This document shows positions 1,207-53,957 of a stretch of 64,000 nucleotides of DNA, piece by piece. The stretch lies in the IMG/VR virus record IMGVR_UViG_3300046820_001896; one strand, given 5' to 3'. A program made the translations under genes and the position numbers. Every line of letters starts with the position of its first letter. Positions within the stretch are counted from its first letter, which is position 1. Below the pieces are notes generated by a model. It had not been told where the DNA came from, did no database searches, and saw only the letters and a list, made by a program, of their open reading frames with translations. Source of the stretch: a virus (lineage: Duplodnaviria; Heunggongvirae; Uroviricota; Caudoviricetes).

Positions 1207-1301
1207 GCTCCTGTAGTTTAACGGTAAAACTCCAAGCTTATACCTTGGCGATGTCTCTAGATGAGGGAATGATATCGGTTCGAATCCGGTCGGGAGTACC
1301 A
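1207..1301 (+). tRNA. type-II-like tRNA (95 nt) with anticodon TAT and a 25-nt variable region; identity uncertain (Ile-UAU-like or a mutated Leu scaffold)
   Basis: Acceptor gctcctg/cgggagt with two G-U pairs. D-arm gttt-aacggta-aaac. Perfect anticodon stem ccaag/cttgg with loop cttatac. T-arm atcgg-ttcgaat-ccggt. Discriminator is A and CCA is encoded. Confidence 0.55.
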
Positions 1302-2900: not shown

Positions 2901-2974
2901 GCCTCGGTAGTTTAAAAGTAGAACACCCTCCTTACAAGTGGAAGACGGCGGAGCGTTACCGCAACGAGGTACCA
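2901..2974 (+). tRNA. tRNA-like element or pseudo-tRNA with non-canonical T-loop AGCGTTA (same oddity as 1044-1119)
   Basis: Acceptor gcctcgg/acgaggt gives 6 of 7 bp, followed by A-CCA. T-stem ggcgg/ccgca. No good anticodon stem could be formed (candidate loop cttacaa). Confidence 0.3.
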
Positions 2975-3010: not shown

Positions 3011-3568
3011 ATGAATGTGCTGGCATTAGACGTAGGTGGAATTCCACGTCAATGGTTAAACTTAGAACAAGCTATATTGTATCAAGCTAAAGGCCAAGTT
3101 GCTTGGTCTCTTGGTGATACAATCGCGAAGTTTCGTGGAGGTGTACAGAATGATGGAACAGAATCAATTCTTGAAACACCTTCTATCATCGCCATTAAAG
3201 GTGGTGAAGGTTTTAATCCAGCGAAGTTTGGTACAGTGGTTCTTAGCAATAAGACATTATTTGGTAGAGATCGTCATGTCTGCGCCTACTGCGGTAATCA
3301 TTTTACTTCTAATCATCTTTCCCGTGATCATATCGTTCCTATGTCACGTGGTGGTGAGAATAAGTGGATGAACGTAGTAACATCTTGCAAGAAATGTAAC
3401 TCACAAAAGAGTGACAAATCTTTGAAAGAAGCAGGTTTAGAGTTACTGTACATGCCTTACGAACCAAATCACTACGAACATATTATCCTTCAGAACCGCA
3501 ATATTCTTGCAGATCAAATGGATTATCTTCGGACAGGTGTACCAAAACATTCACGTGTTTTGTCTTAA
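3011..3568 (+). CDS. HNH homing endonuclease
   Basis: HNH motif CAYCG...SRDHIVPMSRGGENKWMNVVTSCKKCNSQK. RBS gaggtag precedes the start. Located in a tRNA cluster, as T4 segB is. Confidence 0.8.
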   Translation: MNVLALDVGGIPRQWLNLEQAILYQAKGQVAWSLGDTIAKFRGGVQNDGTESILETPSIIAIKGGEGFNPAKFGTVVLSNKTLFGRDRHVCAYCGNHFTSNHLSRDHIVPMSRGGENKWMNVVTSCKKCNSQKSDKSLKEAGLELLYMPYEPNHYEHIILQNRNILADQMDYLRTGVPKHSRVLS

Positions 3569-52523: not shown

Positions 52524-53957
52524 ATGATATTTGAAATTTTAGCAGAACGCAGTGAAAAAGATAGAAAAACATTTTTTTACGATAATATAAAAAATGTCTT
52601 ATCTTCAGAGGATGGTTTCATATTTAGTGTGGAAAATAAAAAAACACACAATCATATTGCTATACCATTTTCTAAAAAATCCCCATTGAAAAAATCAAAG
52701 AATATTACAAAACTAAAGATCCAAATGGGTCTTTCGTGTAACTATTCTTGCGACTATTGTTCTCAAAAGTTTGTTGGTCGTCCACCAGAAACCAATAAAA
52801 AAGACATTGATGACTTTATGAAAAAGTTAGAGGTGTTAGAATTCACAGAAGAACAAGGTTTATCAGTAGAATTTTGGGGAGGAGAGCCATTCGTTTATTG
52901 GAAAACTATGAAGCCTCTCGCAGAAGCTATTATGGAAAAGTTTTCTCATTGGAAAAATAGACCTAAGTTTTCAGTGATCACAAACGGTTCTATCTTAACA
53001 AGAGACATTTGTGCTTGGTTATATTACATGGGGTTTTATGTTTCAATTAGTCATGACGGTCCAGGGCAAAGTGTCAGAGGTCCTGATCCATTCGAAGACG
53101 AAGAAGCAAAAAAGATCGTATTAGAATTTTACAAAATAATGAAGCCACAAGGTAGAATTAGTTTTAATTCTATGCTTAATTCTAAAAATAAAAATCGGAA
53201 AGCAATTCACGAATGGTTTATCAATTTTACTGGAGATCCCGAAGTTCCTTTAGGAGAAGGTGCTTTAGTTGATGCATATGATTTAGATGGTATGAATAAT
53301 TCACTATCTACTAAAGAAGAACATTTTGAATTTAGAAGAAATTCTTTTAATGATATTAGATCGAATAATGGTTATATTGGATTTGGAACTATATTACAAA
53401 AAATAGATGGTTTTACTAATTCAGTGATGAATCAACTACCAGCTTCTGGATTAGGACAAAAGTGTGGAATGGATGATCAACATGTTTTAGCGATTGATAT
53501 GAAAGGCAATGTATTAACTTGTCAAAATGTATCTGCTGTTGAAACTGCAATGAATGGTGAATCTCATTTAGGCGGAAACTTAGATGACTACGATAATGTA
53601 GAGTTAAAATCTTCTACTCATTGGGCAAATAGAGAAGAGTGTTCAAAGTGCCCAGTTTTGCATCTATGCAAAGGTTCTTGTATGTTTTTAGATGGTCAGT
53701 TTTGGAAAACAACATGCGATAATGCTTATTCTGATAACATTTCACTTTTTGCTTTAGCATTCGAAAAGATGACATCAGGGTATATTCCATTGTACATAAA
53801 TAGTAATGAATTATCCCCAGAAAGAAAAGATATTTGGGGAACAATATTAAGCCATAAAGAAGAACCTACTAAAAAAATTATTCCTATTATTGCTGTAAGC
53901 GAAAAAACAGTATTAAATGATGTAGAAGTCTATACACAAGCAAAGGTAACACAATGA
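52524..53957 (+). CDS. radical SAM enzyme with C-terminal SPASM domain
   Basis: CNYSCDYC (Cx3Cx2C), GGEP and ITNGS motifs. SPASM Cys series CGMDD ... LTC ... CSKCPVLHLCKGSC ... C. Confidence 0.85.
   Translation: MIFEILAERSEKDRKTFFYDNIKNVLSSEDGFIFSVENKKTHNHIAIPFSKKSPLKKSKNITKLKIQMGLSCNYSCDYCSQKFVGRPPETNKKDIDDFMKKLEVLEFTEEQGLSVEFWGGEPFVYWKTMKPLAEAIMEKFSHWKNRPKFSVITNGSILTRDICAWLYYMGFYVSISHDGPGQSVRGPDPFEDEEAKKIVLEFYKIMKPQGRISFNSMLNSKNKNRKAIHEWFINFTGDPEVPLGEGALVDAYDLDGMNNSLSTKEEHFEFRRNSFNDIRSNNGYIGFGTILQKIDGFTNSVMNQLPASGLGQKCGMDDQHVLAIDMKGNVLTCQNVSAVETAMNGESHLGGNLDDYDNVELKSSTHWANREECSKCPVLHLCKGSCMFLDGQFWKTTCDNAYSDNISLFALAFEKMTSGYIPLYINSNELSPERKDIWGTILSHKEEPTKKIIPIIAVSEKTVLNDVEVYTQAKVTQ

Follow-up and report, generated by a model that had tools for sequence, protein, structure and literature searches.

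Putative AUA-decoding isoleucine tRNAs of phages display a GAU loop on an extra arm, possibly to the host isoleucyl-tRNA synthetase

Reading AUA as isoleucine, and leaving AUG unread, is the task of tRNA-Ile2, whose anticodon becomes LAU through TilS, the lysidine switching both codon reading and identity. Ordinary bacterial isoleucyl-tRNA synthetases (IleRS) read G34 or lysidine-34 and accept U34 poorly; the E. coli enzyme charges the UAU form 360-fold worse than the lysidine form, LAU (PMC3575796), and the transfer of Ile requires recognition of the anticodon (bioRxiv 10.64898/2026.02.03.703510). The identity determinants of bacterial tRNA-Ile include A73, C4-G69 and U12-A23, together with G34 or lysidine-34, A35, U36, A37, A38, C29-G41, G16, U20 and U21; of these, t6A37 and A38 act as determinants for the E. 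coli enzyme (PMC9976931). Short tRNA-Ile(UAU), represented by tRNA-Ile2(UAU) of Mycoplasma mobile and tRNA-Ile(TAT) of cyanophage S-PM2, presumably read AUA as Ile without lysidine, and in M. mobile the recognition of U34 is solved on the enzyme side, by residue R865 of IleRS.

Likenesses also exist among tRNAs with long variable arms. The nematode nev-tRNA-Ile(UAU) looks like a class II tRNA, carries UAU and A73 and occurs beside a normal Ile decoding system; it derives from tRNA-Leu(UAA), has kept the LeuRS determinants, is leucylated and has a Leu-like variable arm of 15-16 nt (Hamashima et al. 2012, PMC3333845). Allo-tRNAs, found in metagenomes, combine a long arm with anticodons other than those of Ser, Leu or Tyr, UAU being predominant in the 8/4 type; they are defined by their SerRS identity and by an acceptor/T branch of 12 bp, split 8/4 or 9/3 (Mukai et al. 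2017, PMC5389517). Synthetases also bind mimics of the anticodon arm in mRNAs: in the E. coli thrS operator and the yeast AspRS mRNA, a non-decoding hairpin with the cognate anticodon triplet is bound by the anticodon-binding domain of the synthetase and regulates translation (PMC9976931).

The gene described here occupies positions 1207-1301 of the plus strand, on which all features below lie, in a 64,000-nt stretch of viral DNA (the window). ARAGORN calls it as tRNA-Ile(tat), 95 nt long with an encoded CCA (1299-1301), and places the anticodon at gene position 33 (window 1239-1241), returning the UAU of the initial annotation with an Ile isotype. The Rfam model RF00005 matches 1207-1298 over its full positions 1-71 with 55.8 bits (E=2.5e-9; gathering score 29 bits), 22 nt of the variable region being inserted relative to the model. 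Together with a direct reading of the sequence, these calls bear out the clean cloverleaf, the 25-nt variable region and the A73 described initially. The acceptor stem pairs GCUCCUG (1207-1213) with CGGGAGU (1291-1297), as read from the sequence and from covariation in the family; it opens with G1.U72, includes C4-G69 and U6.G67, and is followed by the discriminator A73 at 1298. U8 and A9 form the junction to the D arm (1216-1230), which has a 4-bp stem GUUU/AAAC with U12-A23 and a 7-nt loop AACGGUA (A14, A15, G18, G19). The decoding anticodon arm, CCAAG-CUUAUAC-CUUGG (1232-1248), has a perfect stem and presents U33, UAU, A37 and C38, and the T arm, AUCGG-UUCGAAU-CCGGU (1274-1290), has a 5-bp stem and a canonical T loop. 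Between them, the variable region (1249-1273) begins with a 5' connector CGAUG (1249-1253; positions 44-45 plus linker), continues with an extra, pseudo-anticodon arm (1254-1268), whose stem UCUC/GGGA covaries in the family and closes a 7-nt loop UAGAUGA with GAU at 1260-1262, and ends in a 3' connector AUGAU (1269-1273) of the pattern R-N-G-N-Y, in which U48 at 1273 is the Levitt partner of A15. The extra arm could alternatively form 5 bp and a 5-nt loop, if U1258 and A1264 pair.

This gene belongs to an intergenic phage tRNA array (53-2974) of 14 tRNAs, 12 of them called by ARAGORN and two by Rfam only, in the order Met, two Thr, Pro, Gly, Leu(UAG), Phe (Rfam only), Arg(ACG), Ile(UAU), Trp, Gly, Lys, His and Val (Rfam only). 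CCA is encoded in nearly all of them, and the tRNA under study starts 8 nt downstream of tRNA-Arg(ACG).

Similar genes form a family. The anticodon arm of the window tRNA is shared by 43 viral loci, of which 10 carry the long form, and a scan in which the variable region was left unspecified added about 97 further long members, bringing the family to at least 95 distinct long tRNA(UAU) sequences on at least 106 viral contigs. Its members can be defined by an anticodon loop CUUAUAC, a variable region of 21-26 nt containing a 4-5-bp hairpin with a GAU-centred 7-nt loop and a 3' connector of about 5 nt that ends in the 15-48 partner, and A73; with its loop UAGAUGA, connector AUGAU and A15-U48, the window gene fits this definition and scores 113.2 bits on the family covariance model R1. 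Scanned with the anticodon-arm sequence of the window tRNA, which is common to about 10% of the family, cellular loci showed the long form in 2 of 120 cases, against the 10 of 43 viral loci (Fisher p=3e-5), and both cellular matches sit inside phage-like tRNA arrays. Judged by these loci, the family is virus-borne. No close DNA relatives of the window were found among deposited phages by megablast of 3.2 kb or blastn of the tRNA, and cultured carriers were recovered only by a concatenated query of five diverse family members. They include vB_AbaS_qsb1 (A. baumannii), LpeD (L. plantarum) and SynMITS9220M01 (Synechococcus); the Acinetobacter, Lactobacillus and Synechococcus phages among the carriers are unrelated to one another. 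When the ORFs of 134 viral loci, taken from a few kb around each tRNA, were clustered all against all, no dedicated partner gene emerged: no cluster occurs at more than 14 of the 106 long-form loci, the top neighbours being RNase H-like, HNH, GIY-YIG (SegE), phosphoesterase and dCMP deaminase families. The architecture was not found in a literature search that included reviews of non-canonical tRNAs; the family is apparently undescribed so far, although prior publication is still possible.

The fold is supported by comparison within the family, since the folding energy of the window tRNA equals that of shuffled sequence (RNAfold z=0.10, uninformative), even if the minimum free energy structure is a cloverleaf with the extra hairpin. 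Across family alignments, 96-99% of the cells are paired, against only about 35-57% in slid registers, and none of 500 shuffles attains the observed values. When 88 distinct members are aligned by the covariance model, 96.2% of the cells are paired (36-52% in slid registers), double changes occur at 25 of the 26 pairs, and covariation reaches 0.81 against 0.21 in shuffles (0/500 reach it). Every helix covaries, including the extra arm, in which pairing at the four inner positions amounts to 94-100%, in up to five or six pair types, and the 7/5 acceptor/T architecture shows covariation at all 12 pairs, including all seven of the acceptor. Such conservation with covariation over at least 88 distinct relatives excludes the partly degenerate paralog that was suggested initially.

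The extra arm is built like an anticodon arm and presents the triplet with which the major tRNA-Ile decodes, GAU. In 92 of the 95 distinct members, GAU sits at the centre of a hairpin loop, typically 7 nt long on a 4-bp stem and of the sequence (C/U)AGAU(U/G/A)A, and G, A and U are invariant across these 92, while the stem beneath occurs in 22 different 4-bp versions. The loop has an entropy of 2.5 bits, compared with 3.9-4.1 bits in other long-armed tRNAs and in Leu, Ser and Tyr tRNAs, whose loops are variable or of the GNRA/UUCG type. The flanking residues depart from those of a true anticodon loop: 87/92 have A instead of U at 33', 81/92 have U or G instead of A at 37' (U alone in 62/92), and 38' is usually A. 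The 5' connector varies between 2 and 6 nt, the 3' connector is exactly 5 nt long in 80/92, and its last base covaries with nucleotide 15 (A-U in 66/78, G-C in 11/78). At the base of the extra stem, a purine-purine juxtaposition like that of positions 26/44 is found in 72/92. By eye, no conserved complement of the GAU loop was found in the anticodon, D or T loops. The GAU is the key feature of these tRNAs and was absent from the initial annotation.

A small, parallel lineage of tRNA-Arg(UCU) was also observed, in which the extra loop, UACGAA, equals the anticodon loop of tRNA-Arg(ACG). The scan for this design gave seven matches, three of them true members and the rest due to chance or to an unrelated insertion. 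The lineage suggests that viruses may more generally place the anticodon of the major isoacceptor on an extra arm.

Regarding identity, the body of the tRNA is, by sequence comparison, of the ordinary tRNA-Ile type. The acceptor stem, U8-A9, the 4-bp D stem and the 7-nt D loop match those of tRNA-Ile(UAU) and tRNA-Ile(GAU), and the sister contigs L003 and L010 have exactly the same 3' acceptor strand in their tRNA-Ile(GAU). Outside the family, the nearest tRNAs are short tRNA-Ile(UAU), with 93% identity in the acceptor and 0.71-0.76 over the body, compared with 0.45-0.60 for Leu classes, 0.40-0.45 for Ser and 0.39 for Tyr (close to the lowest). An identical anticodon arm is found in ordinary 74-77-nt tRNA-Ile(UAU) of phages, Patescibacteria and other bacteria, and these short tRNAs share with the window tRNA the loop CUUAUAC, an acceptor of the (G/A)1-U72 type and the determinants A73, C4-G69 and U12-A23. 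These three are present in 78/78, 62/78 and 71/78 long members and in 103/103, 69/103 and 103/103 short ones, respectively. The window tRNA differs from the short form in its 25-nt variable region, covarying hairpin and GAU loop, in its 7-nt D loop and encoded CCA, and in its A15-U48, the counterpart being G15-C48 in most short viral tRNA-Ile(UAU). Its true anticodon arm carries A35, U36 and A37 of the Ile set, while U34, C38 and A29-U41 are off it; the D loop has C16, U20 and A21, so that G16 and U21, minor determinants defined in E. coli, are missing.

The initial annotation had taken A73 as untypical of Ile and, with the variable region, as a sign of Leu or Tyr tRNAs. The first point is mistaken, A73 being an Ile determinant (PMC9976931) found in all short and long tRNAs counted above, and common to Leu, Ile, Met and Val tRNAs. 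The likeness to Leu or Tyr holds for the variable region only: the acceptor, U8-A9 and the D arm differ from those of the Leu, Ser and Tyr tRNAs of related contigs. The Leu tRNAs of the same contigs have G1-C72, U8-G9, a 3-bp D stem and a D loop of 10-11 nt, so the window tRNA shares with class II tRNA-Leu the long arm and A73, and neither the Leu-type core nor kinship; as for tRNA-Tyr, the required anticodon GUA (G34, U35) is replaced by UAU. The body comparison also rules out an origin by duplication of tRNA-Leu(UAA), which the long tRNA adjoins in L005, L009 and L029. In related contigs, variable arms come and go: some Leu tRNAs are short, and long arms occur on tRNAs for Asn, Gly, Glu, Cys and Met.

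The second line of evidence comes from the codons. A first set, from three cultured relatives, gave few aligned observations (38, with 3.2 nats), and it was therefore enlarged by 79 related loci. In aligned relatives, AUA is exchanged with AUU/AUC 37 times and with UUA/CUA five times, and the log-likelihood of the Ile profile exceeds that of the Leu profile both for relatives of 48-80% identity (-54.9 vs -78.3) and for those of at least 80% identity (-30.6 vs -117.1), while among the most distant relatives the test is weak (1.6 nats over 30 sites). On these alignments, AUA sites are isoleucine sites, and the reassignment of AUA to Leu is ruled out by amino acid profiles and codon swaps. The codon evidence thus contradicts the insertion of Leu at AUA that had been considered initially, and the reading of AUA for an AT-rich phage, also raised there, becomes the best-supported role, in agreement with the Ile-type body. 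The use of AUA in late structural genes, to which attention had been drawn, is not enriched, amounting to 7% of the Ile codons compared with 15.6% elsewhere.

Taken as a whole, our reading is that the gene encodes a functional Ile tRNA that decodes AUA, a rare codon, and shows its GAU arm to a universal host factor, most likely IleRS, and we give this statement a probability of roughly 55%. Its parts differ in strength. That the tRNA accepts Ile, decodes AUA and has an extra arm under sequence-specific selection is highly probable. The UAU arm, with U33 and A37, would decode AUA on the ribosome; its anticodon, genomically UAU, is not modifiable by TilS. The GAU loop would be a sequence-specific element for a universal host component, the universality following from the carriers being unrelated phages and from no neighbouring family exceeding the 14/106 loci given above. 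IleRS is, to our knowledge, alone among universal proteins in reading G-A-U specifically within a 7-nt loop. We infer from sequence that the host IleRS charges the window tRNA with Ile, and a handle would be needed because the E. coli enzyme charges UAU so much worse than LAU.

That the GAU loop is this handle, possibly with the extra arm transiently taking the position of the anticodon arm, is proposed tentatively. Such a swap would make use of the flexible connectors of 2-6 and 5 nt. The extra arm would then part the anticodon read by the ribosome from the one read by the synthetase, and the phage would supply an AUA decoder requiring neither the TilS of the host nor an adapted IleRS; this full scheme, a decoding tRNA with its identity split off onto the GAU arm so as to bypass TilS and the poor acceptance of U34, we advance with low confidence. 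In tRNA-Ile2 a single modified residue serves both functions, whereas here UAU is genomic and identity would pass through a second loop; the AUA-specific task and the problem of recognition by IleRS are the same. Likewise, the phage solution would sit on the tRNA and not, as in M. mobile, on the enzyme, and, unlike the mRNA mimics of the thrS and AspRS systems, the arm would putatively aid the aminoacylation of its own tRNA. Further considerations weigh against the handle besides the imperfect mimicry of the GAU loop at 33' and 37'. In the known complexes of class Ia synthetases, the variable region points away from the anticodon-binding domains, and therefore a rearrangement or a second site on IleRS would be needed. 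Moreover, some phages with short tRNA-Ile(UAU), such as S-PM2, presumably infect hosts that use the TilS pathway, so that an extra handle is not obligatory. The absence of C29-G41, G16, U21 and A38 of the E. coli Ile set from the window tRNA counts against the overall reading as well.

In the most probable alternative, the tRNA is still an Ile-accepting AUA decoder through ordinary identity elements and the extra arm is read by a factor other than IleRS: a modification or processing enzyme, a factor associated with the ribosome or an elongation factor, or a defence protein or anticodon nuclease of the host, towards which the arm serves as decoy or shield. We regard it as somewhat unlikely. The invariance of GAU demands a specific reader and leaves its identity free, A33' and U37' are unlike a true tRNA-Ile anticodon loop, and some phages evidently manage with short UAU tRNAs. 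The Arg lineage points in the same direction. ArgRS reads C35 and U/G36 (PMC9976931) and so needs no help with UCU, for which reason a synthetase deficit leaves the extra loop of tRNA-Arg(UCU), with its Arg(ACG) sequence, unexplained; the lineage fits a reader of major-isoacceptor anticodon loops, such as TadA-like enzymes or nucleases, and hints at some other common reader of extra loops. Against this stands the distribution of the GAU family: its hosts span three phyla, its carriers are phages of unrelated types, and no phage gene accompanies it in the loci clustered, so that its reader must be universal. We know of no GAU-specific factor of such a kind.

A structural or neutral insertion, whose loop has no specific role and which either stabilises an AU-rich core or survives from an insertion that homing endonucleases had spread, is improbable. 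The D stem is indeed AU-rich, variable arms are freely gained and lost in the phage tRNAs of related contigs, and the arrays are often bordered by genes for HNH or GIY-YIG endonucleases; however, the fixation of GAU and of A33' while the stem beneath varies, the low entropy of the loop and the conserved length of the 3' connector are not what such an insertion would leave behind.

Less probable still is a two-headed tRNA, in which the UAU arm reads AUA, the GAU arm reads AUC/AUU and either one stacks on the D stem. Both arms point to Ile, the 3' connector of exactly 5 nt resembles a class I variable loop, the base of the extra arm shows the 26/44-like purine-purine juxtaposition, and the Arg analogue, with its loop AUACGAA, is of decoding grade, having U33 and A37. 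The GAU arm, in contrast, lacks both U33 and a purine at 37 in most members, its stem usually has just 4 bp, and many of the carrier phages also encode a normal tRNA-Ile(GAU).

A Leu-accepting chimera comparable to nev-tRNA-Ile(UAU), that is, a mutated tRNA-Leu(UAA) inserting Leu at AUA, is strongly disfavoured: the nematode precedent (PMC3333845), the long arm with A73 and the adjoining tRNA-Leu(UAA) genes would agree with it, but no Leu tRNA of the same contigs resembles the body, which is closest to short tRNA-Ile(UAU), the format of the variable arm (5-nt connectors and a 7-nt GAU loop) is different, and AUA sites are Ile sites. Finally, a Ser-accepting missense suppressor with a UAU anticodon, allo-tRNA-like or tRNA-Sec-like, can practically be dismissed despite the long arms and frequent UAU of 8/4 allo-tRNAs, since covariation supports 7/5 and neither 8/4 nor 9/3, the discriminator is A73 and not G73, the body is among the least similar to Ser tRNAs, and the codon evidence again indicates Ile.

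If the GAU loop is indeed an identity handle, these phages would possess a natural tRNA with its recognition and decoding triplets on separate arms. This would represent a new answer to the problem of distinguishing AUA from AUG while keeping Ile identity, for which the other solutions are lysidine, agmatidine or an adapted IleRS, and it would show a route by which phages become independent of the tRNA-modification capacity of their hosts. It would also provide a ready-made design for orthogonal tRNAs or for tRNAs that reassign sense codons in synthetic biology. Even without the mechanism, this is a large and recognisable family of viral tRNAs with members in cultured phages that are open to experiment. 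Its definition corrects annotation, because some copies are unannotated, and it warns that a long variable arm need not mean Leu, Ser or Tyr.

The first 3 kb of the window contain 12 tRNA genes called by ARAGORN, one of which, at 1207-1301 (+), is reported as tRNA-Ile(tat), is 95 nt long and encodes CCA. The Rfam tRNA model matches 1207-1298 with 55.8 bits (gathering score 29) and treats 22 nt of the variable region as an insertion. Read from the sequence, the gene consists of an acceptor stem GCUCCUG/CGGGAGU, U8, A9 and U26, a D arm GUUU-AACGGUA-AAAC, an anticodon arm CCAAG-CUUAUAC-CUUGG, a 25-nt variable region CGAUG-UCUC-UAGAUGA-GGGA-AUGAU and a T arm AUCGG-UUCGAAU-CCGGU, followed by A73 and CCA. 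The initial annotation's description of a cloverleaf with a long variable region and A73 is accurate. RNAfold also returns a cloverleaf, with no energetic advantage over shuffled sequences (z=0.10), and the fold is therefore argued from comparison with relatives.

A search of IMG/VR with the exact anticodon arm yielded 43 loci, nine of which have tRNA(UAU) genes of 94-96 nt, the rest being ordinary tRNA-Ile(UAU) of 74-77 nt. In a second viral scan, with the anticodon loop and T arm specified and the variable region free, the long form is present in about 97 of 116 new loci among the matches listed; the family comprises at least 95 distinct sequences, and at least 106 viral loci carry it. Cellular genomes, scanned with one anticodon-arm sequence (CCAAG-CUUAUAC-CUUGG) as the sole query, gave 109 short and two long forms (viral versus cellular, p=3e-5), and both of these long forms sit in phage-style arrays of 12-19 CCA-encoding tRNAs. 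The family is also represented in cultured phages spanning three host phyla: Acinetobacter phage vB_AbaS_qsb1 and Synechococcus phage SynMITS9220M01 (annotated as tRNA-Ile), Synechococcus phage DSL-LC02 (no annotated feature at the match) and Lactobacillus phage LpeD (unannotated); a plain "tRNA-Ile" label or no annotation was counted for three of these four copies. The exact anticodon arm used for the cellular scan is common in short tRNA-Ile(UAU) across Patescibacteria (Saccharibacteria, Paceibacteria and others) and is found in MAGs labelled Pseudomonadales or Actinomycetota (genome loci L160-L279); in these lineages AUA may be read by a UAU tRNA instead of through lysidine.

The family fold is supported by covariation. 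When 88 distinct members are aligned with a covariance model, an alignment fitted to the model's own structure, paired cells make up 96.2% and compensatory changes are seen in 25 of 26 pairs; 10 members aligned independently with MAFFT led to the same outcome. Covariation scores 0.81 versus 0.21 in shuffles, none of 500 reaching 0.81, and slid registers lower pairing to 36-52%. The acceptor/T branch is 7/5, and D-loop position 15 covaries with the last variable-region base (A-U 66, G-C 11, one exception), which indicates a canonical tertiary core. Within the extra arm, the four inner pairs are 94-100% paired, with at most 5-6 pair types each, and 61 of 88 members lack a pair at the fifth position, so that the arm typically comprises 4 bp and a 7-nt loop.

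This loop is centred on GAU in 92 of the 95 distinct sequences, the central G, A and U being fixed by definition in those counted. CAGAUUA (48 sequences) and UAGAUGA (14, including the window tRNA) are represented, and the variant CUGAUAA is the exact anticodon loop of tRNA-Ile(GAU). Numbering the loop like an anticodon loop, position 33' is A in 87/92, 38' is A in 71/92 and 37' is U in 62, G in 19 and A in 10. The stem underneath takes 22 different 4-bp forms, its flanking bases are purine-purine in 72/92, the 5' connector measures 2-6 nt, and in 80/92 the 3' connector has exactly the 5 nt of a class I variable loop. Other long-armed tRNAs of the same contigs, namely Leu, Ser and Tyr tRNAs and sporadic Asn, Gly, Glu, Cys and Met ones, have V-arm loops that vary or are GNRA/UUCG tetraloops. 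The hairpin displaying GAU is under selection.

A small parallel lineage of 93-nt tRNA-Arg(UCU) (L130 3310-3402 (+), L363 791-883 (-) and L366 188-280 (+), all retrieved contig loci) has an extra-arm loop, AUACGAA, equal to the anticodon loop of tRNA-Arg(ACG), the major isoacceptor. Its hairpin, GGC-AUACGAA-GCC, is found on two different acceptor stems, and L130 also has a 100-nt UAU-family member (2399-2498) with no ARAGORN call. A 91-nt tRNA-Arg(CCU) in L126 (9361-9451 (+)), which precedes the long tRNA(UAU) of the same contig by about 170 nt, bears a 7-nt extra loop, CUAAUAA, resembling an anticodon loop with AAU, and a tRNA-Arg(UCU)-like gene in L364 (2263-2370 (+)), without an ARAGORN call, has a ~21-nt insertion directly 3' of the anticodon loop, an intron-like position. 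Sporadic long arms also occur in Asn(GUU) (eight cases, G73, Ser/Tyr-like D arm), Lys(UUU), Gly(UCC), Glu(UUC), Cys(GCA), Met(CAU), His and Ile(GAU) tRNAs (L013 7023-7105; L029 3686-3772; L084 325-410; L081 899-986; L007 10913-10997; L105, L158, L020 and others); the arms of these non-Leu/Ser/Tyr tRNAs are capped by GNRA-type tetraloops. Many phage tRNA-Leu genes are class I-like, of 77-78 nt with a 5-6-nt variable loop, and keep the Leu-type D arm and A73 (L003 8609-8686, 9065-9141 and 12035-12111; also L007, L009, L013, L028, L029 and other viral loci). Short versus long counts in viral loci are 16 vs 50 for UAA, 24 vs 29 for UAG and 23 vs 10 for CAA; in the window Leu(UAG), 686-768, the variable region measures 12 nt.

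The window (GC 32-42%) encodes T4-type baseplate wedge proteins, and its gp6 homologue is 40-42% identical to gp6 of two Kyanoviridae, Melnitz (a Methylophilales phage) and HTVC008M (a Pelagibacter phage); no close DNA-level relatives were found among deposited phages. A 477-aa radical SAM protein (52524-53957 (+); phrog_1802, E=1e-63) is encoded amid structural genes. The long tRNA(UAU) gene lies in an intergenic tRNA array (53-2974), a promoter-like site follows it at 1312-1340, and the downstream genes (HNH endonuclease, 2OG-Fe(II) oxygenase, phosphoesterase) are not translation-related. Arrays with the long form repeatedly adjoin HNH or SegE-like GIY-YIG homing-endonuclease genes, as in the window (3011-3568 (+)), vB_AbaS_qsb1 and LpeD (in retrieved loci, L368 2027-2308 and L370 1752-2372), and three ORF clusters of 11-13 loci each; homing endonucleases are a possible vehicle for moving it between unrelated phages. 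Two window tRNAs without ARAGORN calls, Phe(GAA) and Val(UAC), were found by Rfam alone (1044-1119 and 2901-2974 (+); 41.0 and 29.9 bits). Both encode CCA, and they have non-canonical T loops without U54-U55-C56 (GCGUAAC and AGCGUUA) and D loops without the usual GG. Because relatives have comparable T loops (AGCGUUA in L028 Ile(GAU), AUCGUUA in L009 Met(CAU)), the sequences suggest that this phage group has an alternative elbow in which D loop and T loop co-vary.

Regarding the amino acid, the initial annotation took A73 and the long arm as typical of Leu or Tyr, an inference not borne out, since A73 is a bacterial Ile determinant along with C4-G69 and U12-A23 (PMC9976931). These are present in 78/78, 62/78 and 71/78 long members and in 103/103, 69/103 and 103/103 bona fide short tRNA-Ile(UAU), respectively. 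In sister contigs L003 and L010, tRNA-Ile(GAU) has exactly the 3' acceptor strand of the window tRNA, CGGGAGU-A. When neither the anticodon arm nor the variable region is compared, the nearest non-family tRNAs are short Ile(UAU) (body identity 0.71-0.76, acceptor identity 0.93); body identity is 0.45-0.60 for Leu, 0.40-0.45 for Ser and 0.39 for Tyr, and every Leu tRNA in related contigs has G1-C72, U8-G9, a 3-bp D stem and a 10-11-nt D loop. AUA accounts for 142 of 18,072 codons (12% of Ile-box codons), and its share of Ile codons is lower in the structural block (7%) than elsewhere in the window (15.6%). Opposite window AUA codons, relatives have AUU/AUC 37 times and UUA/CUA five times, and amino-acid profiles favour Ile over Leu by 86 nats (relatives >=80% identical), 23 nats (48-80%) and, weakly, 1.6 nats (the most distant). 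AUA sites are Ile sites, and the suggestion that Leu might be inserted there does not stand against the Ile-type body, codon swaps and profiles. Readings as a nev-tRNA-like Leu (PMC3333845) or allo-tRNA-like Ser tRNA (PMC5389517) are rejected on A73, C4-G69 and U12-A23, on the body of the tRNA and on the codon evidence.

The window tRNA is of Ile type and its UAU loop is decoding-grade; we infer that it is charged by host IleRS. The probability is about 0.9 that it accepts Ile and decodes AUA, with an extra arm that is sequence-specific and under selection. In the mechanism proposed, the GAU loop would be the handle by which IleRS takes the tRNA. The proposal draws on the 360-fold worse charging of UAU than LAU anticodons by E. 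coli IleRS and the IleRS change needed for UAU use in M. mobile (PMC3575796), on the need for anticodon recognition in the transfer step (bioRxiv 10.64898/2026.02.03.703510) and on known anticodon-arm mimics bound by synthetases (PMC9976931). It also draws on the reader having to be universal, as the family is carried by unrelated phages with hosts in three phyla and a comparison of genes around viral loci found no shared neighbour. Against it, the loop has A33', mostly U37' and no equivalent of t6A37. In known class Ia synthetase complexes the variable region points away from the anticodon-binding domains, which also counts against a handle, as do the short UAU tRNAs of phages, S-PM2 among them, whose hosts presumably rely on TilS. 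The tRNA-Arg(UCU) analogue, not explicable by a synthetase deficit, is a further point against it. IleRS as the reader is only a tentative candidate; a reader other than IleRS is almost as probable, and the residual probability is shared by mischarging, a two-headed decoder and an arm with a structural role alone.

Full-text searching and reviews of non-canonical tRNAs revealed no description of a class II-like tRNA-Ile(UAU) or of a GAU-bearing variable arm. The GAU-bearing long tRNA-Ile(UAU) appears to be undescribed, and the mechanism proposed for it is unusual and testable.
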